Positions 32,601 to 49,544 of a stretch of DNA of 64,000 nucleotides are shown here, piece by piece. Position 1 is the first letter of the stretch; every line of letters begins with the position of its first letter. A model generated the notes under the pieces. The model ran no database searches. It saw only the letters and a list, made by a program, of their open reading frames with translations, and was not told the DNA's origin. The DNA comes from a plasmid: the NCBI RefSeq assembly GCF_053078305.1, contig NZ_CP166875.1, one strand, 5' to 3'. A program made the translations under genes and the position numbers.

Positions 32601-32619
32601 TACAGGAAGACAAACGCTG

Positions 32620-33366
32620 ATGACAACGGATAACACGAACACGACACGTAACGATTCACTGGCTGCCCGGACCGATACCTGGCTGCAGTCGTTGCTGGTC
32701 TGGTCACCCGGACAGCGGGATACCATCAAAACGGTGGCACTGGTGCTGATGGTGCTGGACCATGCAAACCGCATTCTGCATCTGGAGCAGACGTGGATGT
32801 TTCTGGCCGGGCGGGGCGCGTTTCCGCTGTTTGCGCTGGTCTGGGGACTGAATCTGTCCCGTCATGCGCATATCCGTCAGGCGTCCGTAAACCGCCTGTG
32901 GGGATGGGCTGTTGTGGCGCAGTTCGGGTACTTTCTGGCGGGATATCCGTGGTATGAGGGCAATATTCTGTTTGCCTTTGCGGTGGCAGCACAGATGCTG
33001 AAATGGTGTGAATATCACTCGCTGGTATGGTCAGTCAGTGCACTTACACTTCTGGTTCTCTGGTTCCCGTTATCTTCCACCAGTTACGGTGCTGTCGGGA
33101 TCATATTACTGATGCTCTGTCACAGGATATACAGGACGACGCACCTTTCTGTACGGAGCATGCTGGCGCTTTGTCTTTTCCCGGTCGTTGCTCTCGTTAA
33201 CCTGCAGGACAGCGTGACTGCCGCTGTCAGTGGTGTGTTAGTGACATACATGGTCGTCAGGATGGTATCCGGTATCCGGTGGCCTGCTGCCCGTTTCTGG
33301 CCGGCAGACTTTTTCCCGGTATTTTATGTCTGTCATCTCGCTGTGCTGGGAGTGATGGCCCTGTAG
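32620..33366 (+). CDS. traX: TraX pilin N-acetylase, polytopic membrane protein
   Basis: 248 aa from in-frame ATG after traI stop; matches F TraX length. Confidence 0.85.
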   Translation: MTTDNTNTTRNDSLAARTDTWLQSLLVWSPGQRDTIKTVALVLMVLDHANRILHLEQTWMFLAGRGAFPLFALVWGLNLSRHAHIRQASVNRLWGWAVVAQFGYFLAGYPWYEGNILFAFAVAAQMLKWCEYHSLVWSVSALTLLVLWFPLSSTSYGAVGIILLMLCHRIYRTTHLSVRSMLALCLFPVVALVNLQDSVTAAVSGVLVTYMVVRMVSGIRWPAARFWPADFFPVFYVCHLAVLGVMAL

Positions 33367-33445
33367 CAGGAAGCGCAAGAAAGCGGATGAACTGTGAAAG
33401 TCTTTTTGTTTAAATCAGAGCGCATTCAGGAAAAAACAGGAGCAG

Positions 33446-33817
33446 ATGATGAAAAAAATATTACTGGTGGCAGCCATTACGGGAATGTTCGTTCAGGGGG
33501 TATGGGCAAAATCAGATCAGCAAATCCGGGATGAGGCTAAAAATAATGTGATCACTGTTTCTCAGGTGAGTGACATGACGGAGGGGACCGGTGTGACGCT
33601 GAATGGTCAGATAGTGAAGCAACTGGCAGCCGAAGAGGATCATTTTGAACTCAGTGATGCATCAGGAAGTATTGTCATTGATGTCGATGATGAAGTATGG
33701 CGCCCGCTGGCCCTGAAAGCCGGAGATAAAGTTCAGGTTGTGGGAGAAGTGGATATTTCTGATGAGGGAAACCGGAAAGCCACGGTGGATGTACTGACTC
33801 TTGAGCGTCTTCGCTGA
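33446..33817 (+). CDS. periplasmic OB-fold protein (YgiW/BOF-like)
   Basis: signal peptide and sequence pattern of BOF family; inference from memory. Confidence 0.5.
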   Translation: MMKKILLVAAITGMFVQGVWAKSDQQIRDEAKNNVITVSQVSDMTEGTGVTLNGQIVKQLAAEEDHFELSDASGSIVIDVDDEVWRPLALKAGDKVQVVGEVDISDEGNRKATVDVLTLERLR

Positions 33818-33852
33818 TATGAACAACGGATACCGGTGAGGGCAGGTGAGTT

Positions 33853-34410
33853 ATGACAGAGCAGAAACGGCCAGTACTGACACTGAAACGAAGAACCGAC
33901 GTGGAAACACCGACCCGGAGCCGGAAAACCATCATCAATGTCACCACGCCACCAAAATGGAAGGTGAAAAAGCAGAAACTGGCGGAGAAGGCTGCCCGGG
34001 AAGCAGAGCTGGCGGCGAAGAAAGCACAGGCCAGACAGGCGCTGTCCATTTATCTGACGCTGCCCTCGCTGGATGAGGCGGTGAACACTCTGAAACCCTG
34101 GTGGCCGGGATTGTTTGACGGTAACACGCCCAGGCTTCTTGCCTGCGGTATCCGGGAGGTTTTACTGGATGAGGTGTCTCAGCGAAATATCCCGCTCTCT
34201 CATAAAAAACTCAGCCGGGCGCTGAAAGCCATCACCCGTTCGGAAAGTTATCTGTGCGCAATGAAAGCCGGCGCCTGCCGCTATGATACGGAAGGCTATG
34301 TGACAGAACATATCACACAGGAAGAAGAACAGTATGCGCAGGCGCGCCTGGAAAAGGTGCGCAGACAGAACCGGATCAAGGATGAGCTGCGGGCGATCCT
34401 GGCTGAATAA
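33853..34410 (+). CDS. finO: FinO RNA chaperone (fertility inhibition)
   Basis: 185 aa, basic N-terminus, matches remembered FinO. Confidence 0.9.
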
Positions 34411-34417
34411 TAAAAAC

Positions 34418-34438
34418 GCCCTCTGTATGACAGAGGGC
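34418..34438. terminator. hairpin GCCCTCTGT-ATG-ACAGAGGGC downstream of finO
   Basis: 9-bp perfect stem; A-tract 5' and no T-tract 3' on + strand, so may serve the opposite strand. Confidence 0.35.
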
Positions 34439-34562
34439 AACAGCGAAAAAATCGGGAAAACAGACATCCAGAGTTTTGATGGAGAAAAACACCCAACCGT
34501 TCAGGGATGTTTCATAATGTTTCTGACATAATCCGGGCGCCGGGTCAAGGGGGGGATAAAAA

Positions 34563-34766
34563 ATGGCTGTATCCAGTGGATTATCTGAGCACAGCGGTAT
34601 TTATCGCTATCAGCGCGTGGGGCGTCATGCCGTCCGTCAGGAGATTCGTGGCTTTTTCAGGGAAGCCGCTGAGGCCTGGCAGAATGCGGCCCGGCTGGCA
34701 CCCTGTGAAGCATGGCGGGATTTTGCCCTGAAGAGGGCATCTGCATGCCGGTGTAAGTGCCGATAA
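34563..34766 (+). CDS. hypothetical small basic protein
   Basis: 67 aa ORF with strong GGGGGGAT RBS; weak. Confidence 0.25.
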   Translation: MAVSSGLSEHSGIYRYQRVGRHAVRQEIRGFFREAAEAWQNAARLAPCEAWRDFALKRASACRCKCR

Positions 34767-35511
34767 AAATAACCCCCGTCGCGGAGCTCCGGGGGATCAG
34801 GCTTATATGGCAGATCGTTATTATTATTATTATAGTGGTGTAAGAAGGAGTTGCCCTGTCTTTCAAACGGACATCACAGAATTAACATATTTCACCTCCC
34901 GGGTAAGCCAGCAGGGATAAAAAATGTGATGAATTTCAAGAAGCAGGAGGTGACAGTGGCATGCATAACAGCAGGGTTATCCGGTGAATCTGACAGACAG
35001 CCGGGCTGTATTCGCGGCAGGATAAAGAAAAACCGGGAGATGACTCTCCCGGTCCGTCTTATCGCTAATCCCCTGAGCAGGGCATGTATGACTTATCTAT
35101 GACCATTATATTCAGCGCCACATCCGGTAGCCTGCGATATAACACAGTTATCCTGTCAGTAAGAGCAGGTATGATGAATACACGGAGATTAAAAATATAA
35201 TCTCCGTCACATGTTACCCCCGGAAACCGGTAACGCCGTCACGGGAAAGACGTGACAGAAAAAGCAGCCTCCGTTACTCCAGGTATCAGAAGGCTGAATA
35301 ATGCATGAGACTTTCTTTCTTATGTGTCTGGTCAGGCTGGCTGACCAGCGTTTTTAGTAACACATAGCCATATGTGTATTAAGCCACCTCATCTTATTTT
35401 GTTGAATTGATCACAATTCAACGGTTTATTTTTGGCGTGATGTGTGAGCCGTTATTCATCCCGGCATGGAATTCATGCAATAACGAAAAGTAATCAGTGA
35501 CGGAGAGTAAA

Positions 35512-35973
35512 ATGAAGAAATATATACCACTGGTATTATTTGTTTTTTCATGTCAGGTATTTTCTGCTGATATTCATGGACGGGTTGTGCGTGTTCTGGA
35601 TGGCGATACCATTGACGTTATGTTATCTCAGCATCCGGTGCGTGTCCGTCTTGTTAATATTGATGCACCTGAAAAGAAACAGGACTATGGCCGGTGGTCT
35701 GAAAAAATAATGAAATCTCTGGTTGCGGGAAAAACGGTTACTGTCACATATTTTCAGCGAGATCGTTATGGTCGTATTCTCGGGCAGGTTTATGCACCAG
35801 ACGGAATGAATGTTAATCAGTTTATGGTCCGTGCAGGCGCTGCATGGGTTTATGAGCAGTACAACACCGATCCTGTTCTTCCCGTCCTGCAGGGAGAAGC
35901 ACGACAGCAGAAACGTGGTCTGTGGGCAGACAGCGCTCCTGTTCCGCCCTGGGTATGGCGCTCACGGAAATAA
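35512..35973 (+). CDS. secreted thermonuclease-family (SNase-like) nuclease
   Basis: signal peptide; RVVRVLDGDTIDV...VRLVNIDAPE motif typical of staphylococcal-nuclease fold. Confidence 0.75.
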   Translation: MKKYIPLVLFVFSCQVFSADIHGRVVRVLDGDTIDVMLSQHPVRVRLVNIDAPEKKQDYGRWSEKIMKSLVAGKTVTVTYFQRDRYGRILGQVYAPDGMNVNQFMVRAGAAWVYEQYNTDPVLPVLQGEARQQKRGLWADSAPVPPWVWRSRK

Positions 35974-36060
35974 TGATATTTCTGTGGCTATTGAGTTCTC
36001 ATTGAAATGCGATATTTAAAAGTATGAAGCATATTACATTATTAACTTATTTCTCTGTTA

Positions 36061-36459
36061 ATGAAAGGTGAACAAATGAACTATCAGGCAGTATCAGAAT
36101 TAATCACATCGTCTAATCATAATGTTCTTATTGTGGGGGACTCAGCTTCTGAAGTTGATAGCTTTTTAAATAAACTGAATATTACTGATTATAAGTATTA
36201 TGATTTCAGCCAGATTTACAGTTGTTCTGACAGAACATTAAATGATTATGCGGTTATTTTTATCAGGGATGCACTGAACGCCAGTGAGCATATTATTATT
36301 TTTAATTGTACAGGATGGCCTGATTTGAATAATGAATCTGCCGTCATGCAGTTTGCCAGAGTGGCACGAAAATCAGGAAAACAACTGATAGTCGCAGTAA
36401 GAGAACAGGATATGAAAAAAATGGAAGCAGAGTTTGGAAGGATCATAAAAATCCACTGA
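36061..36459 (+). CDS. hypothetical protein with alternating strand/helix pattern
   Basis: 132 aa AT-rich ORF; followed immediately by second copy of structured element. Confidence 0.4.
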   Translation: MKGEQMNYQAVSELITSSNHNVLIVGDSASEVDSFLNKLNITDYKYYDFSQIYSCSDRTLNDYAVIFIRDALNASEHIIIFNCTGWPDLNNESAVMQFARVARKSGKQLIVAVREQDMKKMEAEFGRIIKIH

Positions 36460-36530
36460 CGCCTTCGCGTTGCTCAGTTGTCCAACCCCGGGGACGGGAA
36501 AAAGCAAGTTTTCCCCGCCCCCGGCGTTTC
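36456..36530 (+). repeat. conserved ~72-bp structured element (copy 2)
   Basis: same flanks as 24178-24249 with a different but self-complementary stem. Confidence 0.6.
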
Positions 36531-36681
36531 TGTAGTGAAAAGCGGGAAATGGAGGGAATGGTCAGTAACAGGGAATGTGGTATTATCGCGGCGGGTGTCT
36601 GAGCCTTTCTGGTTCAGGCAAGACGCAGGTACTAGAAATGCGAAGACCCCACTTGTTAATCCATTAACTCGTGAGGCCTGC

Positions 36682-36888
36682 ATGAAGTACTTGAACACTA
36701 CTGATTGTAGCCTCTTCCTTGCAGAGAGGTCAAAGTTTATGACGAAATATGCCCTTATCGGGTTGCTCGCCGTGTGCGCCACGGTGTTGTGTTTTTCACT
36801 GATATTCAGGGAACGGTTATGTGAGCTGAATATTCACAGGGGAAATACAGTGGTGCAGGTAACTCTGGCCTACGAAGCACGGAAGTAA
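36682..36888 (+). CDS. srnB: SrnB/PndA-type Hok-family type I toxin
   Basis: MKYLNTTDCSLFLAERSKFMTKYALIGLLAVCATVLCFSLIFRERLCELNIHRGNTVVQVTLAYEARK matches remembered SrnB. Confidence 0.8.
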   Translation: MKYLNTTDCSLFLAERSKFMTKYALIGLLAVCATVLCFSLIFRERLCELNIHRGNTVVQVTLAYEARK

Positions 36889-37171
36889 GCTGCCGGGCGG
36901 GGACGGAAGTCCCCGCTTTCCGGAAGTGTGAGGTATTTCAGGGGCAGACACCCGACATGCCAGAAACCGCCGGTCCCGCCCGGGGCCGGCACACAGGTTA
37001 AGGCATTTCCTGTTTTTCAGCCATTTCGCAACAAAAATCACATTAAACAACAGTAATCACCGTTGATTTGTGCGCCAACACAGATCTTCGTCACAATTCT
37101 CAAGTCGCTGATTTCAAAAAACTGTAGTATCCTCTGCGAAACGATCCCTGTTTGAGAATTGAGGAGGCGAG

Positions 37172-37432
37172 ATGTCGCAGACAGAAAATGCAGTGACTTC
37201 CTCATTGAGTCAAAAGCGGTTTGTGCGCAGAGGTAAGCCTATGACTGACTCTGAGAAACAAATGGCCGCTGTTGCAAGAAAACGTCTTACACACAAAGAG
37301 ATAAAAGTTTTTGTCAAAAATCCTCTGAAAGATCTCATGGTTGAGTACTGCGAGAGAGAGGGGATAACACAGGCTCAGTTCGTTGAGAAAATCATCAAAG
37401 ATGAACTGCAGAGACTGGATATACTAAAGTAA
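37172..37432 (+). CDS. copB: CopB (RepA2) transcriptional repressor of repA
   Basis: 86 aa, matches IncFII CopB; position upstream of copA/repA1. Confidence 0.85.
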
Positions 37433-37494
37433 AGACTTTACTTTGTGGCGTAGCATGCTAGATTACTGATCGTTTAAGGAATTTTGTGGCTGGC

Positions 37495-37585
37495 CACGCC
37501 ATAAGGTGGCAGGGAACTGGTTCTGATGTGGATGTACAGGAGCCAGAAAAGTGAAAACCCCGATAATCTTCTTTAACTTTGGCGA
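37495..37585 (-). ncRNA. copA: CopA antisense RNA (approximate bounds)
   Basis: region between copB and tap matches remembered R100 copA target sequence; bounds estimated. Confidence 0.55.
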
Positions 37586-37656
37586 GTGAGAAAGATTACC
37601 GGGGCCATCTAAAAACCGTATAGCCAACAATTCAGCTATGCGGGGAGTATAGTTAT

Positions 37657-37731
37657 ATGCCCGGAAAAGTTCAAGACTTCTTTCTGTGCTCGCTCCTTCT
37701 GCGCATTGTAAGTGCAGGATGGTGTGACTGA
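37657..37731 (+). CDS. tap: Tap (RepA6) leader peptide
   Basis: 24-codon [27 protein letters not shown] ending just after repA1 GTG start. Confidence 0.6.
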
Positions 37732-38581
37732 TCTTCAACAAACGTATTACCGCCAGGTAAAGAACCCGAATCCGGTGTTTACACCCCGTAAAGGTGCCGG
37801 AACGCTGAAGTTCTGCGAAAAACTGATGGAAAAGGCGGTGGGCTTCACCTCCCGTTTTGATTTCGCCATTCATGTGGCGCATGCCCGTTCGCGTGGTCTG
37901 CGTCGACGCATGCCACCGGTGCTGCGTCGACGGGCTATTGATGCGCTGCTGCAGGGGCTGTGTTTCCATTATGACCCGCTGGCCAACCGCGTCCAGTGTT
38001 CCATTACCACACTGGCCATTGAGTGCGGACTGGCGACAGAGTCCGGTGCAGGAAAACTCTCCATCACCCGGGCCACCCGGGCCCTGACGTTCCTGTCAGA
38101 GCTGGGACTGATTACCTACCAGACGGAATATGATCCGCTTATCGGGTGCTACATTCCGACCGATATCACGTTCACACCGGCGCTGTTTGCCGCCCTTGAT
38201 GTGTCTGAGGATGCAGTGGCAGCTGCGCGCCGCAGCCGTGTGGTATGGGAAAACAGACAGCGCAAAAAGCAGGGGCTGGATACCCTGGGTATGGATGAGC
38301 TGATAGCGAAAGCCTGGCGTTTTGTCCGTGAGCGTTTCCGCAGTTACCAGACAGAGCTTAAGTCCCACGGCATGAAACGTGCCCGTGCGCGCCGCGATGC
38401 AGGCAGAACCCGCCAGGACATTGTCACCCTGGTGAAACGGCAGCTGACGCGTGAAATCGCGGAAGGGCGTTTCCGGGGAAGCCTGGAGGCCGTGAAGCGC
38501 GAAATCGACCGTCGTGTGAAGGAACGCATGATAATGTCGCGTAACAACAACTACACACGGCTGGCCACTGCCTCCCCCTGA
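37724..38581 (+). CDS. repA1: RepA1 IncFII replication initiator (GTG start)
   Basis: [22 protein letters not shown]... near-identical to remembered R100 RepA1. Confidence 0.9.
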
Positions 38582-38599
38582 GTTTTACCTCATCTGAAT

Positions 38600-38900
38600 A
38601 ATCCGGCCTGCGCCGGAGGCATCTGCACGCCTGAAGCCTGTCAGCGAACAAAAAAACAGCACCACATACAAAAAACAATCTCATCATCCCGCTTCTGGTG
38701 CATCCGGCCCCCCTGTTTTCGATACAAAACATGCCTCACTGACGGGGAATTTTGCTTATCCACATTTAACTGCAAGGGACTTCCCCATAAAGTTACAACC
38801 GTTCATGTCATAAAGCGCCAGCCGCCAGCCTTACAGGGTGCAATGTATCTTTTAAACACCTGTTTATATCTCCTTTAAACCACTTAACTACATTCATTTA
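38600..38900. promoter_or_regulatory. oriR-type origin region with DnaA box TTATCCACA at 38756-38764
   Basis: DnaA box and AT-rich stretch downstream of repA1 as in R1/R100. Confidence 0.6.
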
Positions 38901-39157
38901 AAAAGAAAACCTATTCACTGCCTGTCCTGTGGACAGACAGATATGCACCTCCCACCGCAAGCGGCGGGCCCCGACCGGAGCCACTTTAGTTACAACACTC
39001 AGATACAACCACCAGAAAAACCCAAGTCCCGCGCAGAACTGAAACCACAAAGCCCCTCCTCATAACTGAAAAGCGGCCCCGCCCCGGCCCAAAGGGCCGG
39101 AACAGAGTCGCTTTTAATTATGAATGTTGTAACTATACTCCATCATTGCTGTCAGTA

Positions 39158-39427
39158 TTCTGGCTGGAAGTCCTCAGTACACGCTCGTAAGCGGCCCTCA
39201 CGGCCCGCTAACGCGGAGATACGCCCCGACTTCGGGTAAACCCTCGTCGGGACCACTCCGACCGCGCACATAAGCTCTATCATAGCTGACAGCGGGTATG
39301 GCTTTGCAGGGTGGGGATGGGTAAGGTGAAATCTATCAATCAGTACCGGCTTACGCCGGGCTTCGGCGGTTTTACTCCGGTATCACATGTAACCACAGCG
39401 TGCCGCCTTACATGCGCTGACGCGCAT
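39158..39427. repeat. 270-bp GC-rich structured segment, copy A (IncFII ori-downstream type)
   Basis: ~90% identical direct repeat of 41040-41310. Confidence 0.7.
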
Positions 39428-39516
39428 AAACAACAAGTTGCTACATTAGCTTACAGGTTAATTCACCTTGCATAAGATTAGCATATAGGTTAATGTTTAT
39501 CGAAATGGGAGGTCAT

Positions 39517-39846
39517 ATGTTTAGCGTTGTTTATCACCCGGAAGCCAGGGAAGAAGCCACAGCATTACCCATAAAAATCAGGGTGAAGTTTGACCGTCTC
39601 ATCAGCAAACTGGAATATGACGCCCGATTACTGCGGGAACCGGATACAAAGCCCCTGGGGGATGGACTTTTTGAGATCCGCACGATGGGGACGGACATAG
39701 CCAGAGGCATCTGGGTATACCACAAAGGCAATACCATCATCATGCTCCGGGTTTTCATCAAGAAGTCTCAGAAAACGCCAGCAAAAGAAATCGATCTCGC
39801 CAAAAAGCGGTTAGCGGAGGTACTTAATGAAACTGGTAAGCCATAA
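39517..39846 (+). CDS. HigB/RelE-family toxin
   Basis: toxin-first order followed by overlapping HTH gene. Confidence 0.65.
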   Translation: MFSVVYHPEAREEATALPIKIRVKFDRLISKLEYDARLLREPDTKPLGDGLFEIRTMGTDIARGIWVYHKGNTIIMLRVFIKKSQKTPAKEIDLAKKRLAEVLNETGKP

Positions 39847-40108
39847 AGAACTGCATAACGAGTGGATGCAGGACGACGAATATCGCGCTGCATGGCAGGA
39901 AGAAGAACGTAAGGAGAAACTCAGGGAGTTGCTTGCAGAATGGCGTAAGCATGACAATTTGACAAAAGCGCAGGTTGCTGAACGCATGGGGGTTACTCCT
40001 CCTGTTATTTCCCGCCTGGAAAACAACATCACTAAAGCCAGCATCGACACCCTGACTCGCTATGCCCATGCGTGCGGTATCAAAAAACCTGTTATTACGC
40101 TGTACTGA
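39827..40108 (+). CDS. HigA-like HTH-XRE antitoxin
   Basis: 93 aa, HTH motif LTKAQVAERMGVTPPVISRLEN. Confidence 0.65.
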   Translation: MKLVSHKELHNEWMQDDEYRAAWQEEERKEKLRELLAEWRKHDNLTKAQVAERMGVTPPVISRLENNITKASIDTLTRYAHACGIKKPVITLY

Positions 40109-40296
40109 ACTCTGCTCTATGGCTGCCAGTTCTGGAGAAATCAGTAACTAAATTTTAATTAGCTACGTTATGGTAAATCTGCCTGATGTGTCGATTTCTC
40201 TGAAAGTAATTCGGCTTCTGTGGGCTGCGTTTGCCTTGTGCCACCTGAATGTAATCACTATGATTAAATATGATTAACAACTAATCGGATATACAA

Positions 40297-40575
40297 ATGA
40301 AAAACAATACCGCACAGGCAACAAAAGTAATTACCGCGCATGTGCCATTACCTATGGCTGATAAAGTCGACCAGATGGCCGCCAGACTGGAACGCTCCCG
40401 GGGCTGGGTTATCAAACAGGCACTTTCTGCATGGCTTGCCCAGGAGGAGGAGCGTAATCGCCTGACGCTGGAAGCCCTGGACGATGTGATATCCGGACAG
40501 ATTATCGACCATCAGGCTGTACAGGCCTGGGCAGACAGCCTCAGTACTGACAATCCGTTACCGGTTCCACGCTGA
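40297..40575 (+). CDS. ribbon-helix-helix antitoxin (ParD/CopG-like)
   Basis: 92 aa upstream of and coupled to ParE-like ORF. Confidence 0.6.
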   Translation: MKNNTAQATKVITAHVPLPMADKVDQMAARLERSRGWVIKQALSAWLAQEEERNRLTLEALDDVISGQIIDHQAVQAWADSLSTDNPLPVPR

Positions 40576-40850
40576 TGGAACTGAAGTGGACCAGTAAGGC
40601 GCTTTCTGATTTGGCGCGGTTATATGATTTTCTGGTGCTGGCCAGTAAACCTGCCGCCGCCAGAATGGTACAGTCCCTGATACAGGCACCGGTCATTCTG
40701 TTAACTCATCCACGTATGGGAGAACAGTTGTTTCAGTTTGAACCCAGGGAGGTCAGACGGATTTTTGCTGGCGAGTACGAAATCCGTTACGAACTTAATG
40801 GGCTGCGTTTGGGAAACGTACAATATTGTACGGTTGCGCTATTGCGGTAG
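40575..40850 (+). CDS. ParE/RelE-family toxin
   Basis: 91 aa, ATGA overlap with antitoxin. Confidence 0.6.
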   Translation: MELKWTSKALSDLARLYDFLVLASKPAAARMVQSLIQAPVILLTHPRMGEQLFQFEPREVRRIFAGEYEIRYELNGLRLGNVQYCTVALLR

Positions 40851-41039
40851 GGTGTACTCCAACGCTATACGGTATTTGGCAGACCTTTAGGGACATGAGA
40901 TAACCTAAATGCAATAAGAGAAAAGCAATAACTTAAAGGCGATAGCTGATCACGATGAATCAATCAGTTACTTATCCGCATCGATTAAAAAATGCTCCTA
41001 ACGTACAATAATTCCGTTTCCCAAACCGACCCCTCAGTG

Positions 41040-41310
41040 TTCTGGCTGGAAGTCCTCAGTACACGCTCGTAAGCGGCCCTGACGGCCCGCTAACGCGGAG
41101 ATACGCCCCGACTTCGGGTAAACCCTCGTCGGGACCACTCCGACCGCGCACAGAAGCTCTCTCATGGCTGAAAGCGGGTATGGCTTAACAGGGTGGGAAT
41201 GGGATAGGCGAAATCTATCAATCAGTACCGGCTTACGCCGGGCTTCGGCGGTTTTACTCCGGTATCACATGTAACCACAGCGTACCGCCTTCCATGCCGC
41301 TGGCGCGGCA
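41040..41310. repeat. 270-bp GC-rich structured segment, copy B
   Basis: direct repeat of 39158-39427. Confidence 0.7.
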
Positions 41311-41385
41311 TATCATGGTGACGATATCTGAATCGTTATATACTGTGTATATACGTGGTAATGACGAGGTGATAAATGGCACAGG

Positions 41386-41469
41386 TTAATATGAGTTTAA
41401 GAATCGACGCTGAACTGAAGGATGCTTTTATGGGGTCAGCCTGGAATTCGGAAAATAAACCACGTTAAG
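41386..41469 (+). pseudogene. truncated RHH antitoxin remnant (MAQVNMSLRIDAELKDAF...)
   Basis: 27-codon ORF with RelB/ParD-like N-terminus, no toxin partner. Confidence 0.4.
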
Positions 41470-41640
41470 ACTATTTTTTAGCCAAATGACTGTCAGGAAT
41501 CCGGACGGTCGGAACATTTCGTACAGCCTTTACGTTCAGTGAGTTAGCTGGCCTGGATGTAACCACTCGTTCAACTCAATTCTCTTAGCGTGGGAAAATT
41601 TCCGTTTTCCAAGCGGACCCCTAGAAGAAGGGAAGCGATA

Positions 41641-42057
41641 TCAAGCCCAGGGATTAATAATTGATACTCCGGTTAATTCAAAATCACCAACATTTCTGGT
41701 TACAACCGTCATCCCATGTACCAGCGCCGTTGCTGCGATCAATGCGTCTCGTTCACTGCGCCTGTCGGGAACATGTAAACGAGAACAACGTAATGCAACC
41801 GCAGTATCTACAGGAAGTATCTTATCAGAAAACGCTGGTAACACATGCTGATCCATCCAAGAACGTAGCATAATCCCTTGTCGCATATCTCGACGTTCAA
41901 CTTGTAATATTCCCTGTTCAAGTTCCATTATGGAAATAACAGAAATAAAGAAATCTGCCGCATCTGTATGCAATACCCATTTTGCAACATTATTATCTAT
42001 ACGTCCTGTCCGAGCCTTCCGTAGCTCAGAGATAACATTAGTATCAAGAATATACAC
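41641..42057 (-). CDS. vagD: VapC/VagD PIN-domain toxin
   Basis: 138 aa, MYILDTNVISE PIN motif. Confidence 0.85.
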   Translation of the reverse strand: MYILDTNVISELRKARTGRIDNNVAKWVLHTDAADFFISVISIMELEQGILQVERRDMRQGIMLRSWMDQHVLPAFSDKILPVDTAVALRCSRLHVPDRRSERDALIAATALVHGMTVVTRNVGDFELTGVSIINPWA

Positions 42058-42311
42058 TATAAAAACTCCGCAGGTTTTAAACTAACCGTAATACGAGGCG
42101 GTTCAAATTCAACTGCATCAGCATCGGGCATCGCCAGAATGTCAATGAGAGTTCGTCGTTGTTGCGTCAATTTTCGGTATTCTTCGATACTAAGAAGTAC
42201 ATGTGCGGTTTTACCCCGATCAGTAATAAATACTGGACCATAATTCGTGGCGCGTTTGGCTCGAGTTACATCTTGATTAAGTTCCCGACTGGATAGGGTT
42301 GTAATCTTCAT
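42057..42311 (-). CDS. vagC: VapB/VagC antitoxin
   Basis: MKITTLSSRELNQDV..., overlaps toxin start. Confidence 0.8.
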   Translation of the reverse strand: MKITTLSSRELNQDVTRAKRATNYGPVFITDRGKTAHVLLSIEEYRKLTQQRRTLIDILAMPDADAVEFEPPRITVSLKPAEFL

Positions 42312-42424
42312 GCTGTTGCCTTTTGATGTATATAGGTACGTTACTACATTGTAGGGCATGAAATAGTACAATGCAAGAAATGTACTTGATTAGGGGTAGT
42401 CTTCGCCGCTTGTTGCTGTCAGAT

Positions 42425-42458
42425 ATTAATGCTAATGTATGCATACATTAGCATTAAT
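42425..42458. promoter_or_regulatory. 34-bp perfect palindrome ATTAATGCTAATGTATGCATACATTAGCATTAAT
   Basis: perfect dyad in divergent intergenic region. Confidence 0.45.
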
Positions 42459-42470
42459 GAGGGATGATAT

Positions 42471-42884
42471 GTGAGAGACAAAACCAGGGAGGCCATGCGG
42501 TTTTTTTTAGGCGGCAGGTGTTACACGGCTGAAAACCTTGAAAAGGATTATCTGGCTGAAGTTGCTAATTACAGTGACGACCGCTGGGAAGCACCCCAAC
42601 GCGCCGCACGTCTGGCAGCTGCCGTAAAGCGTTACAAGACATCAGAAATGCTGCGCTTTATTTTTGCTACCACTGCCTACGATCCCGATCCAGATTTAAC
42701 CCCGCTGACTGTGAGACGTTTGTGCAAGGCATTGTTCGGCAGAACAGGAAGCCAGTGGCTGGTTGTTGAAGTTTTTGGGGAGAAGGGGCGTCAGCACCGC
42801 AGCGCGGACAGCAATCCGGAGATGGTGGAAAAAGGGGGTTCGCGCCCATTTCCTCTAAAAGTCTCACCTTGCTTAGGTAATTAA
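42471..42884 (+). pseudogene. hypothetical ORF whose 3' end runs into the Tn3-family left IR
   Basis: ORF C-terminus encoded by IR sequence at 42834-42884. Confidence 0.35.
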
Positions 42885-42890
42885 TTGAAT

Positions 42891-43472
42891 TTATTTATAA
42901 AACGTTGCAATTTTAGCATCATTTTTTATTGTTCTTTTTAACCTGAAGTACGTCGATCGAGAGATACCTGTTTTTTCTGTCACACTGCCCAGAGATTCTC
43001 CCTGTGATATAAGCTCCAACGCTGTAGGCGTTCGTGGATGCTTCTTCCTGCCAAATTTTACGCCTGCGGCAAGTGCCGCTATTCTTCCGTCGTTTGTCCG
43101 CTCCAGAATACGCTCACGTTCCGCTTCAGCTACAGCAGCAAGGATTTGGATAACCATTTTGCCCATTGTCCCTTCTGTACTGAGACCGTTCTCCAGGAAC
43201 CGGATGGCGATCCCCTTTTTGTAACAGCTATCAACCACACGAATCATGTCAGCAGTGTTACGCCCCAGTCGGTCCATTTTTGTACAGATGATTACGTCGT
43301 CTTTCTCTGCACGGGCCAACAACCGCTGTAGTCCTTCCCGTTCATCAGTTGCGCCAGTCATCATATCCGTAAAAATACGATCTTCCCGTACCCCGGCATT
43401 TTTTAGCTCCGAGATTTGATGTGTTAGCTTCTGATGACTGGTTGATACCCGTGCATACCCCAATAACGCCAT
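42891..43472 (-). CDS. tnpR: serine-recombinase resolvase TnpR
   Basis: MALLGYARVSTSHQ catalytic Ser motif, C-terminal HTH. Confidence 0.85.
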   Translation of the reverse strand: MALLGYARVSTSHQKLTHQISELKNAGVREDRIFTDMMTGATDEREGLQRLLARAEKDDVIICTKMDRLGRNTADMIRVVDSCYKKGIAIRFLENGLSTEGTMGKMVIQILAAVAEAERERILERTNDGRIAALAAGVKFGRKKHPRTPTALELISQGESLGSVTEKTGISRSTYFRLKRTIKNDAKIATFYK

Positions 43473-43484
43473 TTTTAGTCTCAC

Positions 43485-43628
43485 TTATCGTTTTTGACAC
43501 TGCATGGTATCATAATGTACAAAATACGATTTTTGAAACCTGCTTTTATGCTGTTTTAGACAGGTATCAGATATCTTAATATTTGATACTAGCCATATTT
43601 AACAAATATTTAGCATTTTGGTAAATGT
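43485..43628. promoter_or_regulatory. res site region between tnpR and tnpA
   Basis: divergent intergenic region with TGTC..GACA-type dyads. Confidence 0.5.
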
Positions 43629-46600
43629 ATGCAGAAGTACAAGAAAAGAATTAGTATATTAACAAAAAGTGAAATAAATGAATTATATCAAGTCCCCTCT
43701 TTTAATCCTGTTGAAAGGGATGAGTTTTTTTCGCTGGATATCAGCCTTAAAAGAGAAATTGATAAAATAATAAATATAGAAAGCAGGGTGTATCTGATAT
43801 TAATAACAGGGTATTTCAGATATAAACCTGTGATTCCTGAATTTACATTAAAAGACGTAAAAAGGGATGTGAAATATATTATCCAGACATATTATAAAAA
43901 CGAAAGTACTAATCTCAATTTAAACATACCTAAAAGTACAAAGTACCGCCTTGTTAAACGAATGCTTTCTACTCTAGGATTTGAACAACTCACCCCATCT
44001 ATAAAAAATGAGTTAAGTGAACGTCTGAATGATGTTGCTACTATATGTATGGAACCAAAATATATTTTTGATGAATTACTTGCTTTTTTAGGACAGCGGC
44101 GTATAGCTCTTCCTGGATACAGTACTGTCCAGAACCTCGTTTCAGATGCTTTAAACTTTGAAAGGAAAAGGACAATTAATATTTTGTCAAAGAGAATTTA
44201 TCCTGCCACTGCACAAAAGATTACATCCATCATCCATGATGATGGAATATTAAATTCCATCAGGGGATATAATTATAGCACGAGAGACTTCTCAGCATCA
44301 GAAATAGAAAATGAATTAAGAACTCACAATGTGATAAGTAGTATTTACTATGAAATAAAAGATATAATTAATTCATTAGGTATATCCCAGGGAAACATGG
44401 AGTACTATGCAACTATCGTAAAACACAGTACAACATTCAGACTTAAGCGACACCCTAAATGGCAAGGAATACTTTATTTGTGCTGCTACTTGTACTTCAG
44501 ATACAGAGAGATAAATGATAAAATAATCACAGCCTTCAGATATTTAGTAAAAAAACATAAAGACGCTTCAGTTTTGTTTGCAAAAGCTCGGGCAACAGAG
44601 GAAATAGATCTAATAAATAAAAAGCTTAAGTTTGCGAGTAAAATATTTAACTTCTTCGTTGATAGTAACATTGAAGACAGCATCCCTTTTGGATATGTTC
44701 GTGAAAAGGTTTTTTCACTTATATCGAAAGATGATATGCATCTTGTGAGTGAATTTTTTGACAAAAATAAAATCGATGTAATTGAATATCAATGGCAGTA
44801 TATTGACAGCCATCACCTTAAGATCGCCAATTCAATCCGAAAGCTTTTTCTGGCTATAGATATAGTATATGACAACGAGAAGTCTGTTATTGGCCAGCAA
44901 ATTACTGCTGCCAAGGATGATCTCAGAGGAAAAGGAAAGCTGGATGCTAAGGATCTGAGGGTAATTCATCCATCCGAGAAAAATTACATTGTAAAAGAAG
45001 GAGAAATTAACACTCAACGATTCGAATTTCATATGTACAGCAGGGTATCTAACCATCTGGAAAACGGTGTCTTTTATGCTGCGGAGAGTGAACAAAACAA
45101 GAGACTGGAAGATGATCTCATAGAACGAAGTTACTGGCATAAGAATAAATCGATTTTGATAGAGAAAACAGGCCTTGAACGACTTATCACACCAATAACG
45201 CAGACTCTTAATGAGCTGGAGAATACCTTTAGCGATAAACTGGCTCGTATAACCATTGGAATAAACTCAGATGCTAATGAGTTTGTGAAAAAACAACCAC
45301 ACTCCAACAGATTACAGTGGAGTCTGGCCAGTAAAAAATGGAAGACCAGCATCGATAATCCGATTTACAATCAGATAAAAAATATCGGAATAGTTGACGT
45401 AATGAAGTATGTAAACAATGAGACGAATTTTTTGTCTGTGTTTAATGCCATATCATCCAGGAAAAATAATCTTGAAGCTGACTATAATGACCTTCTTGCC
45501 TGTATATTTGGTAATGGCGCAAATTATGGTGTTCACAGAATGGCATCTGCATCAGACCGTAGTATTGGAATACTACGTGATGTGAATGACAAATTCATTC
45601 GTCCAGAAACAACAGGAATGGCCAACACAGTAATATCTGATGCAATTGCAAATCTTTCTGTATATAAATACTGGACGATAAATGAAGATTCTCCATTTGG
45701 AAGTGTTGATGGGCAGAAGCACACTTGCAGAATAAATACATTTAAAGCCCGTTATTCTGCCAAGTATTTCAGAAAGGGGAAAGGGGTTTCTGCGATGACA
45801 CTGGTATCTAATCATGTGCCATTATCAACTGTGGTAATTTCTCCAAATGAATATGAAGGTCATTTTGCATTTGACTTGTTATATAACAACACCAGTGAAA
45901 TACAACCAAAGTCATTAGCGACTGACAATCATGGTATAAACAACGTTAATTTTGCGATTCTTGACATTTTTGGCTATCAGTTTTCACCACGTTATGCAAA
46001 ATTCAAGAAAATATTTAATGAATTATTTGATGTTATACTGGAGAGTGATAAACTCATTATAAAACTTAAAAAACAATTTAACTTTAAGCTCATTGAACAT
46101 GAATGGGAAAACATCCAACATATTATTTGTTCTTTAAGCAGAAAAACAACCATTCAAAGTACGGTTGTTAAGAAGTTATCTAATACAAAGCGTAGCAACA
46201 AGACATTAGCAGCACTTCGGGAGTATGACCGAGTTATAAAATGCATATATGTCCTGGATTATGCTGACAATAAAACCTTAAGGCAATTTGTGCAACAAGC
46301 ACTGAACAGAGGTGAAGCTTATCATCAACTAAGAAGAGCAATAGCATCAGTAAATGGAAATCAATTTCGCGGTGGTAATGACTACCAAATAGATCAATGG
46401 AACGACTGTGCGAGGTTAATAGCTAATTGTGTAATCTATTATAATTCAGCAATATTATCCAGGCTGGTCGAGAAATTTGAAAAAGAAAATAATAAAAAAG
46501 CGATAGATGTTCTGGCTAACTTATCCCCAGTAGCATGGAGACACATTCTCCTTGGAGGGAATTATTCTTTTGAAGATCAAGTTGCGATCACAAATTTGGA

Positions 46601-46667
46601 CAGTCTTTTGGAGGGAGTAGACCCACTAAGTGATATCGGAGATATTGAGTCCGAATATGACGGTTAA
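43629..46667 (+). CDS. tnpA: Tn3-family transposase TnpA
   Basis: 1012 aa, AT-rich, typical size for the family. Confidence 0.9.
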   Translation: MQKYKKRISILTKSEINELYQVPSFNPVERDEFFSLDISLKREIDKIINIESRVYLILITGYFRYKPVIPEFTLKDVKRDVKYIIQTYYKNESTNLNLNIPKSTKYRLVKRMLSTLGFEQLTPSIKNELSERLNDVATICMEPKYIFDELLAFLGQRRIALPGYSTVQNLVSDALNFERKRTINILSKRIYPATAQKITSIIHDDGILNSIRGYNYSTRDFSASEIENELRTHNVISSIYYEIKDIINSLGISQGNMEYYATIVKHSTTFRLKRHPKWQGILYLCCYLYFRYREINDKIITAFRYLVKKHKDASVLFAKARATEEIDLINKKLKFASKIFNFFVDSNIEDSIPFGYVREKVFSLISKDDMHLVSEFFDKNKIDVIEYQWQYIDSHHLKIANSIRKLFLAIDIVYDNEKSVIGQQITAAKDDLRGKGKLDAKDLRVIHPSEKNYIVKEGEINTQRFEFHMYSRVSNHLENGVFYAAESEQNKRLEDDLIERSYWHKNKSILIEKTGLERLITPITQTLNELENTFSDKLARITIGINSDANEFVKKQPHSNRLQWSLASKKWKTSIDNPIYNQIKNIGIVDVMKYVNNETNFLSVFNAISSRKNNLEADYNDLLACIFGNGANYGVHRMASASDRSIGILRDVNDKFIRPETTGMANTVISDAIANLSVYKYWTINEDSPFGSVDGQKHTCRINTFKARYSAKYFRKGKGVSAMTLVSNHVPLSTVVISPNEYEGHFAFDLLYNNTSEIQPKSLATDNHGINNVNFAILDIFGYQFSPRYAKFKKIFNELFDVILESDKLIIKLKKQFNFKLIEHEWENIQHIICSLSRKTTIQSTVVKKLSNTKRSNKTLAALREYDRVIKCIYVLDYADNKTLRQFVQQALNRGEAYHQLRRAIASVNGNQFRGGNDYQIDQWNDCARLIANCVIYYNSAILSRLVEKFEKENNKKAIDVLANLSPVAWRHILLGGNYSFEDQVAITNLDSLLEGVDPLSDIGDIESEYDG

Positions 46668-46733
46668 CAACATGATAAATAATGGTTTTTATGCTAAGAG
46701 TGAGACTTTTGGAGGAAATGGGCGCAGAACCCC

Positions 46734-46957
46734 TGTATCTGCCGTTCGGTTTTTGCACGAAGTTTTTCTGAGCTTTTACCGAACTGCATACGTTGCAGTT
46801 TCGCAACCAGCGCCTTCAGCCGGTTGATTTCGGAAGCATAAGCCGCCACCCGCTGTGAGAGCAGGCGGTTGTATTCAGCCATCTGGCGGATGGTGTCCTG
46901 TTGCGTCTGCAACAGTGCCCGCAGGCGGGCGTTCTCATGAGCAAGTGAGGTGTCCAT
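46734..46957 (-). pseudogene. IS66-family TnpC N-terminal fragment truncated by Tn3-family insertion
   Basis: leucine-zipper N-terminus MDTSLAHENARLRALL...; ORF ends at Tn IR. Confidence 0.7.
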
Positions 46958-46976
46958 ATCCTCACTTTACAACGGG

Positions 46977-47324
46977 TTATATGCGGATTCCAGCGCGTTC
47001 CGTTCGTTTCGGGTGCTTCCAGTTGATACCTTCAAGAAGCATGGATAACTGAGCCGGAGTAAGGTGCACCTTGCCGTCACGGGTGACTGGCCAGACGAAG
47101 CGGCCCCGCTCCAGGCGTTTGGTGAAGAGGCACAGTCCGTCACTGTCAGCCCACAACACTTTTATCTGGTCACCCCGGCGTCCGCGGAAGATGAACAGGT
47201 GTCCGGAGAACGGGTCATCCTTCAGGACGTTCTGAACTTTTGATGCCAGGCCGTTAAAGCCATTTCGCATATCGGTGATACCTGCAACCAGCCAGATACG
47301 CGAACCTGCAGGGAGAGATATCAT
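46977..47324 (-). CDS. IS66-family TnpB (orf2)
   Basis: 115 aa, typical IS66 orf2 size and sequence. Confidence 0.8.
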   Translation of the reverse strand: MISLPAGSRIWLVAGITDMRNGFNGLASKVQNVLKDDPFSGHLFIFRGRRGDQIKVLWADSDGLCLFTKRLERGRFVWPVTRDGKVHLTPAQLSMLLEGINWKHPKRTERAGIRI

Positions 47325-48001
47325 CAGTGGCTGCTCCCTTTTATTTCGCGGATAAGTGTCTGTAATAACGCCGGCGTCAGTTTACCTTTAAGCCTGAGAG
47401 TTCCGGCCGGCAGAACCAGCTCACAACACAGACTGTCGGACGGTGTATTTATCTGCTCTGGTTCCTGTGCGGGGGCCGGGATTTTATTATCCGGCTCCGG
47501 CGTTAACGTCACGGGAAGCAGTGCCGGCATATTTTTTCCGGAAGGCAGCAGGCCACCTTTCCGGTATTGATGGCGCCAGTTGAAGAGCAGGTTATCGTTG
47601 ATTCCGTTTTCCCGGGCGATCTGCGCCACACAGGCTCCGGGCTGCAGTGACTGCTCCACTAAGGCGATTTTAAACTCATAAGGGAAGTTGGGCCGCCGGG
47701 GACGTTTTTTTACCACGGGGGCTTCGGATATAACGGTGCTTTCAGGACGTACGACTGGTACCGTGGAAAATTGTCCGTAAAGGCAGGCATCAAGTTCCTG
47801 CTCCGACATGCCTGCGGGCAAAGGCCACGAAAGGCCAGCTCTCCGAAAGCGCACGAACATACTACAAACTGTTGATTTTGGTACACCCAGGCGACGCCCG
47901 GCCACAACCCGGGGTAAATGTTCTTCAAAGTGAAGACGTAAAGCTTCAGTGATCCAGGTCCGGTGTTTCATACGATAGTGTCCATTAAAAATGATGGACA
48001 T
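47324..48001 (-). CDS. IS66-family TnpA (orf1)
   Basis: contains KRPRRPNFPYEFKIALVEQSL...LLFNWRHQYR HTH region; start uncertain. Confidence 0.7.
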   Translation of the reverse strand: MSIIFNGHYRMKHRTWITEALRLHFEEHLPRVVAGRRLGVPKSTVCSMFVRFRRAGLSWPLPAGMSEQELDACLYGQFSTVPVVRPESTVISEAPVVKKRPRRPNFPYEFKIALVEQSLQPGACVAQIARENGINDNLLFNWRHQYRKGGLLPSGKNMPALLPVTLTPEPDNKIPAPAQEPEQINTPSDSLCCELVLPAGTLRLKGKLTPALLQTLIREIKGSSH

Positions 48002-48329
48002 TATTTTTGTAGAGCCGGAGGAAACAGACCAGACGGTTTAAATGAGCCGGTTACAAACAAATTCGCTTCATAAATTTCATAGTGCAGACCACATCCCCAA
48101 TGAGCCTGCTTTTCCAGCCTGCTGATCACCACATCAGCCCGGATAACATCAAAGGGATTGCGGGAATGAATATTACGAATAAAGCCATCGGTACGTGCTG
48201 CTGACATATTTCTGCCCATCTTTAATACACCTCTGTTTTTTGCCCCCATCATCTGTTGAGTTTCGGGAGCCGCGGTTTTGACGTTTTGCGGGGACCTGCC
48301 TTTTGTTCCCTCCGGTATTCACCATCACC

Positions 48330-48720
48330 TGTTTGAGAACCTTCGCCGCAAGGGGCATCACTGCCACGGCCGGAAACGACTGTCCGGGGGCAGACCGCAA
48401 AAGTTTTTGCCTGCTTTTGGGCAAAAAGTTTTGCGGGATGTGCATTTCACCCCTGGACTGGCGGAGACGGTTGTGGCTGTCTTTGCCCCCGGCGACAGGG
48501 GCTTAAACAGGTGTATGGCACCGGACACAACAACGGGCAGGGACCCGCCGCAACGACGAAGAGCGCGTGCGCGAAACGGCGTTGCCCCTTACATCCCGGC
48601 GGCCTTTTGCCGGGATGCCAGGAGCGCAGGCCACGGCGCGACAGAGGCGGCGCGACCGGAACGGTCGCTGCAAGCCCGGGGTTTCGCGTCAGGGATGGAA
48701 GCCCGCCAGGGCGGAGACAG
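48330..48720. promoter_or_regulatory. GC-rich hairpin repeat, copy 1 (candidate Frpo/ssi-type single-strand element)
   Basis: homologous to 53740-54010; core GAGCGCAGGCCACGGCGCGACA.AGGCGGCGCGACCG...CGGTCGCTGCAAGCCCGG. Confidence 0.5.
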
Positions 48721-49078
48721 CTTCGCTGGCTCCGTTCACGACAGCCCGCCCCGCCTGGGGGACGCCCGGAAAAGGCATAAGCAGGAGAACAACAAAACAG
48801 ACAATAATCAGGGCAGCAGTAATCAGAGTCAGAACAGGAGGAAAAAGAGAATAATCAAAGGGAAGGTGATGTGATTTCCGACAGGTCATAAACAGAGAAG
48901 GCGGGGGAAAAGAACGGGCGCCGCAGGCGCGCGTTCATCCCCGTTCCCGGAGGGAATCGGCCTTCCTGGCAGTCTGGTTGTTCATGCTGCTGCAATGTCA
49001 GCAAGGAGAAAGGGGCCACCGGCGAACCAGCAGCCCCTTTATAAAGGCGCTTCAGTGCAGTCAGACCAGCATCAGCCC

Positions 49079-49104
49079 TGAAAAGGCGGGCCTGCGCCCG
49101 CCTC
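49079..49104 (-). terminator. rho-independent terminator of hok transcript
   Basis: GGCGGGCGCAGGCCCGCC hairpin followed by T-tract on - strand. Confidence 0.6.
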
Positions 49105-49111
49105 CAGGTTG

Positions 49112-49270
49112 CTACTTACCGGATTCGTAAGCCATGAAAGCCGCCACCTCCCTGTATCCGTCTCTGTAACGAATCTCGCACAGCGATTTTCGTGTCAGAT
49201 AAGTAAATATCAACAGTGTGAGACACACAATCAACACACACCAGACAAGAGAGCTGCGTGGTAGTTTCAT
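49112..49270 (-). CDS. hok: Hok host-killing type I toxin; overlapping mok frame extends to 49411
   Basis: [52 protein letters not shown]. Confidence 0.85.
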
Positions 49271-49544
49271 GGCCTTCTTCTCCTTGCGCAAAGCGCGGTA
49301 AGAGGCTATCCTGATGTTGTCAGACATATGGGATGCCTCGTGGGTTAATGAAAAATTAACTACGGGGCTATCTTCTTTCTGCCACACAACACGGTAACAA
49401 ACCACCTTCACGTCATGAGGCAGAAAGCCTCAAGCGCCGGGCACATCATAGCCCATATACCTGCACGCTGACCACACTCACTTTTCCTGAAAATAACCCG
49501 CTCATTCAGGCTGTTTACGGGTAATCTGTGTGATTGTTGCCGCA

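Follow-up and report, generated by a model that had tools for sequence, protein, structure and literature searches.

A repeated segment behind an IncFII replicon

The plasmid DNA considered here (64,000 nucleotides of contig NZ_CP166875.1, NCBI RefSeq assembly GCF_053078305.1; hereafter the window) carries an F-like plasmid backbone in which a sok RNA, copB, the CopA RNA, tap, repA1, a DnaA box and Ter-like sites lead up to the first of two copies of a segment that we call SEG, and the two copies bracket a pair of toxin-antitoxin (TA) operons. A repeat search of positions 37000-44000 returned one direct repeat family at 39152-39415 and 41034-41297 with 95% ungapped identity, the remaining families measuring only 22-33 nt at 73-82% identity. 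After MAFFT and BLAST comparison the limits were set at 39152-39427 for copy A and 41034-41311 for copy B, and pairwise alignment of the two counted 17 differences, mismatches and indels together, over 278 columns (93.9% identity), with shared perfect runs of 74, 71 and 41 bp. A 276-bp repeat at 94% identity far exceeds chance. The first-pass annotation of this DNA, made from the letters alone, had recognised the repeat and its direct orientation, both of which stand; its identity of about 90% has to be raised to about 94%, and each copy begins 6 bp further left than was proposed. The copies are also GC-rich, as it had claimed, at 57-58% versus 40-50% in the surroundings.

Copy A lies where an IncFII plasmid would be expected to carry an ori-downstream segment, that is, after a gene of the IncFII_repA family, a DnaA box and oriR. 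The regulatory gene copB/repA2 (37172-37432, plus strand) is an open reading frame (ORF) whose counterpart in L001, a locus of 99% identity, is annotated as 'replication regulatory protein RepA'; it is followed by the antisense RNA CopA on the minus strand (37549-37639; Rfam RF00042, 98.9 bits where the gathering score is 60) and by the initiator gene repA1 on the plus strand (37724-38581, with limits taken over from L001; Pfam IncFII_repA, 3e-25). A consensus DnaA box, TTATCCACA, was read in the sequence at 38757-38765 (plus strand) and marks oriR, which would extend from about 38736 to 38938 by analogy with plasmid R1, whose oriR is 188 bp long. Two Ter-like sites in inverted orientation come next, TGAGTGTTGTAACTAA at 38986-39001 on the minus strand and TGAATGTTGTAACTAT at 39121-39136 on the plus strand, each with two mismatches to the consensus AGNATGTTGTAACTAA. 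Copy A directly follows the second of these and begins 571 bp past the repA1 stop codon at 38581, close to the 600 bp first estimated. Both Ter-like sites lie outside the repeat. Copy B lacks them and does not occupy the ori-downstream position, no rep or ori being present to its left, and is in this sense an orphan. In an Rfam scan of 30000-50000, neither copy matched an RNA family.

The DNA between and beyond the copies is largely made up of TA genes, in the arrangement that had been described at first sight. A higBA-like operon (39493-40108, plus strand) combines a toxin of the RelE/ParE family (39493/39517-39846) with a helix-turn-helix (HTH) antitoxin (39827-40108), and a parDE-like operon (40297-40850, plus strand) combines a ribbon-helix-helix (RHH) antitoxin (40297-40575) with a ParE toxin (40575-40850). 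Past copy B stands a truncated yacA (41376-41441, plus strand), which retains the opening 22 codons of an antitoxin gene of the RelB/DinJ type (tblastn, 91% over 22 of 89 aa), and then, on the minus strand, vagCD (41641-42311), with a VapC toxin of the PIN family (41641-42057) and a Phd-type antitoxin (42057-42311). The names of these TA genes rest on the RefSeq annotation of 99%-identical relatives, since most of the proteins, like most TA proteins of the cargo clusters described below, score below NCBIfam cut-offs; the matches for VapC, Phd and the HTH antitoxin are weak and consistent. Judging from gene adjacency and family homology, the cassettes of the window are type II TA operons. Two further pieces complete the locus: a 236-bp element (40800-41035) that runs from the parE 3' end to copy B, recurs elsewhere and ends at a joint at 41034/5, and, on the plus strand, a hyp160-like ORF (42471-42884; 95% DNA identity to L002 6950-7380; tblastn, 93% over 125 of 160 aa). 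The hyp160 gene usually ends a canonical unit of the order SEG-yacAB-exo-hyp160, and its C-terminus is cut here by a Tn3-family insertion.

Identity, distribution and exchange of the segment

What is this segment? Published quantitative PCR primers for IncFII repA4 map to 39036-39157, abutting copy A, and one database record annotates as 'RepA4' a 39-aa minus-strand ORF on exactly the SEG stretch; together with the position of the Ter-like sites, these two facts identify SEG as the 3' part of the classical repA4 region. Work by Jiang and colleagues from 1993 is said to have given this region a role in stable inheritance. The ori of IncFII plasmids has been placed between repA1 and 'repA4', and the repA4 region of pEC958, which holds ter sites, was found to be needed for stable maintenance and to be essential in transposon-directed insertion-site sequencing (TraDIS) (PMC4398462). 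SEG is almost certainly a conserved ori-downstream module.

The first-pass annotation proposed to BLAST the repeat against IncFII plasmids, and would have been refuted had the repeat not adjoined IncFII replicons elsewhere; the result bears it out. SEG, in both its copies, matched at least 5000 PLSDB plasmids in at least 5742 places at 90-99% identity, and it was found in 4075 of 5426 complete E. coli genomes (75%; 6349 records, 7182 places), almost always on plasmids. In annotated examples it starts about 570 bp past the repA stop codon. Nor is it confined to IncFII: the Ter region and SEG (window 38945-39427) are 89-92% identical behind the rep genes of IncI2 (L004 3895-4282) and IncK/I-gamma (L008 1446-1874) plasmids, and among 129 metagenome and genome loci, pulled by an exact 21-mer inside SEG, the upstream rep was RepA1-type in 61, IncK-type in 16 and IncI2-type in two. 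BLASTP found no similarity between RepA1 and the IncI2 and IncK/I-gamma Rep proteins, which share with it just a weak Pfam IncFII_repA match. Noncoding DNA that is about 90% identical beside such strongly diverged initiators must, as far as these comparisons go, have been exchanged horizontally, which rules out vertical co-descent of SEG with Rep; an internal haplotype patchwork of SEG agrees with such exchange.

Two side observations belong here. The scan of genome contigs yielded ten loci, mostly on mis-binned contigs of metagenome-assembled genomes, and so added no taxonomic breadth; contigs labelled Streptomyces, Clostridiales, Lachnospiraceae, Collinsella, Acidobacteria, Sporosarcina and Ignatzschineria (L010-L019) carry this enterobacterial replicon, most likely through contamination or mis-binning. 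In two IncK-type loci (L046 9860-10345 and L053 7354-7839), a fragment of 165-166 aa with 59-60% identity to IncFII RepA1 stands immediately upstream of the IncK-type rep gene, where it may have been left behind by a hybrid or ancestral replicon.

Constraint at the nucleotide level

An alignment of 95 unique SEG copies shows where selection acts. The most conserved part (about 39180-39268) has major-allele frequencies of 98-99.7% and contains two predicted stem-loops, and its conservation is not forced by the 21-mer search pattern. One block of 87 nt shows no variation at any codon position, and the variable sites of the small ORF in SEG show no 3-periodicity (10/7/8). The constraint thus acts at the nucleotide level and not on a protein. 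At the right edge of SEG lies a terminal hairpin, ATG(C)CGC-TGRC-GCG(G)CAT (39409-39425), in which a paired deletion and the double changes C:G to A:T and C:G to T:A occur among the 95 copies; of all the SEG structures it is the only one with compensated changes. Both copies also contain, on the plus strand, a terminator-like hairpin CGCCGGGCTTCGGCG followed by GTTTTAC (39354-39368 and 41236-41250), which could keep transcription of the origin region from running on into the TA operons.

One shared edge, many cargos

Across seven aligned replicons of three Inc types, homology stops abruptly past the terminal hairpin, and the major-allele frequency collapses past 39425; the right edge of SEG is therefore a true module junction. 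The left edge of the repeat is no natural boundary: native copies are conserved leftward through Ter to about 38945, and copy B starts where it does because of the breakpoint at 41034/5.

Beyond the right edge, 137 instances with at least 600 bp of downstream sequence fall into 33 unrelated sequence clusters. About 100 of them (roughly 73%) carry a TA pair 55-135 bp past the edge, usually co-directional with replication. The largest clusters are yacAB (41 instances; the two proteins match RelB/DinJ and RelE/StbE), a YafN/Phd-type antitoxin with RelE/StbE (15) and the parDE type of the window, which directly follows SEG in 11 other loci; then come a CPBP membrane protease (9), the higBA of the window (7), a second ParE-like pair (7) and a second higBA (6), and the other cargos include vagCD, a pair of an RHH protein and a GNAT protein, relB-relE pairs and insertions of insertion sequences.

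About 15 of the 129 loci have, 1-7.5 kb downstream of the SEG linked to the replicon, another SEG, complete or partial (SEG'), whose orientation is nearly always the same. Mapping with a protein panel revealed a recurring order, rep-ori-SEG-yacAB-exo-hyp160-SEG'-second TA, with both IncFII-type and IncK-type replicons, the second TA being parDE, a ParE-like pair or the RHH and GNAT pair. Stacked units of SEG and TA genes recur in about 10% of loci; the form SEG-TA-SEG'-TA was found in nine (L046, L053, L067, L081, L082, L092, L104, L109 and L138), and even the canonical locus L002 has a 45-bp SEG remnant right after hyp160; in L005 the yacAB unit is inverted and SEG' measures 85 bp. The secondary copies always retain their right end beside the TA genes, while their left ends are truncated at points between 39170 and 39385. 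That these left ends coincide with CTG start sites for primase (TCAGTA at 39152, 39174 and 39340) was considered and rejected, as these CTGs are not conserved and an ancestral hyp160-SEG' junction is common to many of the copies.

A candidate site for leading-strand priming

Why should so short a noncoding segment be kept almost unchanged behind different initiators? Leading-strand synthesis in R1 and R100 reportedly starts outside oriR, some 380-400 bp downstream of it, at a 'G site' that, in work attributed to Masai and Arai (1989), Bernander and colleagues (1992) and Tanaka and colleagues (1994), is recognised directly by DnaG primase on a single-stranded template, as is the complementary-strand origin of phage G4; plasmid and phage G sites are said to be alike just near the primer start. 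SEG was accordingly compared with the G4 origin, for which the database record annotates a primer at 3970-3997 and the origin at 3998. The best local alignment falls on the minus strand of SEG, which is the leading-strand template for rightward replication, and exactly on the G4 start, pairing CCCTACTGCAAAGCCA with CCCACCCTGCAAAGCCA. The putative primer-start region in the window (39300-39309, minus strand) reads GGCTTTGCAG on the plus strand, that is CTGCAAAGCC on the template, and is identical over 10 nt to the primer-start region of G4; the leading-strand primer would begin at about 39308. The CTG that it contains (plus-strand CAG, 39307-39309) is invariant in all 95 unique copies, copy B included, while its neighbours and the other CTGs within SEG vary. 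This CTG lies about 370 bp beyond the presumed end of oriR, a weak point of agreement with the reported distance of 380-400 bp. A map of miniR1 likewise shows ssiA adjoining oriR1 (PMC10989972).

On these grounds, some of them taken from the literature on R1 and R100, SEG is likely to hold a leading-strand priming signal, and its job would most likely be that of a G site, a single-strand initiation signal. RepA and DnaA would open oriR, DnaB would unwind the duplex, and DnaG would prime the leading strand on the minus strand at the invariant CTG, with synthesis proceeding rightward. Such a module would depend on host factors and not on the initiator, which would explain why it remains nearly unchanged in IncFII, IncK/I-gamma and IncI2 plasmids.

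Two flanks, one tandem

The two copies have different relatives. The DNA around copy A (38501-40801) is 99.5% identical to NZ_CP129254 (L001), a plasmid of Shiga toxin-producing Escherichia coli (STEC) that has the same replicon and whose only SEG, at 99.3% identity to copy A, is followed by higBA, parDE and then unrelated genes; plasmids with only one copy, which the first-pass annotation suggested looking for, thus exist. Positions 41034-41433, comprising copy B and the first 58 bp of yacA, are instead 97% identical to the canonical IncFII flank SEG-yacA in L002. Copy B itself is 96.4% identical to the SEG of L002 and departs from the family consensus at none of 231 well-conserved columns, and further on 42404-42833 shows 95% identity to hyp160, the closing gene of the canonical unit, an inverted vagCD standing in place of the yacA 3' part, yacB and exo. 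Since copy A matches the higBA lineage and copy B the SEG-yacA lineage, the copies derive from two different IncFII-type origin flanks: to judge by these alignments, copy A is native to the replicon and copy B comes from a second, canonical flank. Recombination between two IncFII-type replicon flanks had been suggested from the start, and the tracing of the copies to L001-type and L002-type flanks upholds it.

Smaller traces of exchange surround the two copies. Between 38501 and 39440, all nine differences from L001 are concentrated in a 73-bp patch (39127-39199) that spans the 3' part of Ter and the left edge of copy A, and in five of these the window agrees with the canonical IncFII lineage; this pattern points to a local tract of conversion or crossover. 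The 236-bp element at 40800-41035 is 100% identical to an unrelated, unannotated site beside an IS66 remnant on STEC plasmids and 95% identical to a stretch of an IncK plasmid, 0.7 kb past its SEG. Positions 41225-42833 are 98.8% identical to a rep-less locus of STEC plasmids, where no more than the final 85 bp of SEG are left.

The most likely origin of the tandem is homologous recombination through SEG, which forms a patch of 270-480 bp of homology in most enterobacterial F-like and I-like plasmids. Two routes can be envisaged. A single crossover in SEG could fuse co-resident plasmids, with the redundant rep, ori and Ter deleted later, giving SEG-cargo1-junction-SEG-cargo2; alternatively, a circle bearing SEG and its cargo could insert in the manner of Campbell. 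Either route would leave direct SEG repeats around cargo, as seen in the window. Once in place, the TA genes would shape what follows: because loss of a TA cassette kills the cell, tidying deletions might remove DNA to its left but never the cassette, which would account both for SEG remnants that adjoin TA genes and lack their left part and for the growth of TA stacks. In the window, the perfect runs of 41-74 bp would permit RecA-dependent loss of the 1,882-bp SEG-higBA-parDE unit, a deletion that post-segregational killing by two toxins should counter-select.

Taken together, we think it probable that SEG is an ori-downstream priming module that was duplicated by homologous recombination and is stabilised by its TA neighbours; the comparisons show directly what SEG is, how it is distributed and bounded, that its two copies are of separate lineage and that stacks recur, while the G-site activity, the recombination route and the stabilisation by addiction are the steps we infer. 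The element is already known as the repA4/ter/G-site region and the event is ordinary mosaic recombination, while the junction is new to the databases searched.

Several observations weigh against this account. The junction at 41034/5 is absent from PLSDB and from the complete E. coli records, no record in these two sets covers at least 80% of the two-copy region, and the predicted deletion product is absent from the database plasmids searched. The recombination route admits no unique reconstruction. For the priming function, the G4 alignment scores 23 against 16.5 +/- 2.2 for shuffled sequences, about 3 standard deviations above their mean and below their maximum of 26; the most conserved block of SEG lies behind the predicted start and not, as in G4, ahead of it; and the G-site reading leans on the reported distance and on the reported limitation of homology to the start. 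The multiple hairpins described in the first-pass annotation are predicted, and single-strand folding exceeds that of shuffles only modestly (z = -2.5 for the minus and -2.1 for the plus strand). RNAalifold on the 95 unique copies gave 59 pairs with one compensatory change, which can be put down to the fact that SEG hardly varies. Finally, sampling by an exact 21-mer biases the loci towards close relatives and makes the 21-mer block itself invariant by construction.

Other readings of the repeat

Could the units formed by SEG and its TA genes travel as cassettes in their own right? Circles, here the 1,882-bp SEG-higBA-parDE unit, would be excised by recombination between direct SEG copies and re-inserted at the SEG of any IncF or I-complex plasmid, and a G site that is single-stranded and primase-bound at each initiation might promote the exchange. 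We consider this unlikely, although, if true, it would mean that integrase-free TA arrays are built behind plasmid origins and ratcheted by addiction.

It is about equally doubtful that copy B has been retained for a function of its own, as a second site at which the leading strand is primed or re-primed, or else as a terminator or insulator before the downstream cassette. Such a role would fit its intact state, with none of the 231 well-conserved columns altered and with the invariant CTG and all hairpins kept, as well as its co-orientation with replication and the terminator-like hairpin with a T-run that both copies show on the plus strand. A young duplication would look equally intact, however, and the relatives L003 and L005 keep the vagCD unit with just the last 85 bp of SEG; since many secondary copies elsewhere are, in addition, truncated or diverged to 74-83% identity, an intact copy B appears not to be needed.

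An active capture site is marginally more doubtful. Under this explanation, SEG or its terminal hairpin would build TA arrays through a site-specific or replication-coupled process, such as template switching at the leading-strand start or an integron-like or pdif-like reaction. The sharp right edge that ends in a conserved hairpin, the 33 unrelated cargos joined at one base and the stacking of SEG'-TA units in the same orientation speak for such a site, as do some truncated copies whose left ends coincide with the predicted primer start or lie close to it (39306 in L015, L109 and L110, for instance). A sharp edge is nevertheless expected wherever functional constraint ends, the left ends of the secondary copies vary from 39170 to 39385 with one ancestral hyp160-SEG' junction shared by many, and the perfect runs of 41-74 bp suffice for RecA. 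No recombinase is consistently linked: neither the window nor the examined loci have an integrase or recombinase between rep and the cassettes, the resolvase at 42891 being assigned to the Tn3-family insertion. The best Xer/dif-like sites at the SEG edge of the 33 cluster representatives score 10-13 of 22 against a background of 11.7 +/- 1.0. The proposal, made in the first-pass annotation, of a recombination hotspot that captures TA modules is therefore sound as a description of the pattern, with its 33 cargos, its share of about 73% TA and its stacks, but the Xer/dif comparison lends nothing to a special mechanism.

The two weakest explanations can be dealt with briefly. That the repeat is a duplicated protein gene, repA4, for a small replication protein is very improbable: some records do annotate a minus-strand ORF of 39-43 aa here as 'replication protein RepA4', plus-strand repA4 ORFs are annotated elsewhere (PMC2762410) and both copies contain 43-aa ORFs, yet the annotated ORFs differ in strand and frame between records and are often marked as truncated or frameshifted, and the invariance of the core at all codon positions with the lack of codon periodicity at the variable sites led us to reject a coding role. 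The copies are not parts of a single gene, which would have spoken against the first-pass proposal, as would a repeat that did not adjoin IncFII replicons elsewhere. The RepA4 protein was itself reportedly judged unnecessary by Jiang and colleagues in 1993. Scarcely credible, too, is an error of assembly that collapsed two co-resident plasmids or joined them into a chimera, an idea which the database-wide absence of the junction at 41034/5 and the nature of SEG as a typical assembler-confusing repeat might suggest, but against which stand the 17 differences between the copies and their distinct flanks on both sides, the analogous stacks in many independent complete plasmids and contigs, and the greater likelihood that a chimera would join within the repeat than leave two full copies.

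Neighbouring features

The Tn3-family insertion that cuts hyp160 occupies 42885-46667 and encodes a serine resolvase (42891-43484, minus strand) and a transposase of 1012 aa (43629-46667). Beyond it lies the F leading region, with hok/sok, psiAB and ssb, in inverted orientation. Just upstream of the hyp160-like ORF, at 42425-42459, is a 35-bp perfect palindrome, ATTAATGCTAATGTATGCATACATTAGCATTAAT, which elsewhere flanks the hyp160 gene on both sides (L002 6973-7005 and 7526-7562; L003 5200-5233 and 5741-5776) and may serve as an operator or for recombination. Two sok-type antitoxin RNAs (Rfam RF01794), one beside the replicon (36593-36749) and one in the leading region (49268-49439), bring the plasmid to at least five addiction modules within 13 kb.

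Significance

The duplication alone is a further example of mosaic plasmid evolution. Of wider interest is a host-factor-dependent module of about 276 bp that is some 90% identical across replicon families with barely related initiators, is present in most E. coli genomes and forms the left flank shared by at least ten different TA cassettes, which become stacked. Sharing of SEG would offer addiction modules, and whatever rides with them, a route between IncF and IncI/K plasmids, and the pattern would account for the growth of replicon-proximal TA clusters. For annotation, calls of 'RepA4' or 'hypothetical protein' on SEG are probably spurious, and orphan SEG copies may be read as marks of old replicon fusions.

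Comparison with known systems

The closest counterpart is the repA4/ter region of R100 (NR1) and R1, which likewise follows repA1, a DnaA box and oriR, has two inverted Ter-like sites and belongs to a sequence family found in thousands of IncF plasmids; what differs here is that a 276-bp part of it without Ter is repeated 1.9 kb downstream, away from any origin. With the G site of R1 and R100 the proposed priming signal would share its place (on the template of the leading strand, some 370 bp beyond oriR), an invariant CTG that falls inside the 10-nt match to G4, and predicted GC-rich stem-loops on its flanks. The likeness to the G4 origin itself ends there: beyond the start region SEG shows no detectable similarity, its best-conserved block is on the opposite side of the start from the G4 hairpins, and a blastn search of SEG against 50,697 phage records returned no G4-like match, the identity at the start having come to light only in the targeted local alignment.

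As an assembly of cassettes, the locus recalls the pdif (XerC/D) modules of Acinetobacter plasmids and the arrays of integrons, in which small cargos, often TA genes, are bounded by a recurring sequence and shuffled among plasmids. In those systems, however, the recurring sequence is a 28-bp recombinase site or an attC, whereas here it is a 276-bp replication module to which no recombinase is linked. It also recalls the parD/kis-kid system of R1 and pemIK of R100, where a type II TA operon stands right after the basic replicon and is transcribed along the direction of replication, the R1 module being functionally coupled to the replicon that it adjoins (PMC4344636, PMC4398462). The families at the present locus are different (higBA, parDE, vagCD and a yacA stub), several of them are stacked, and each TA unit has a SEG-derived left flank of its own.

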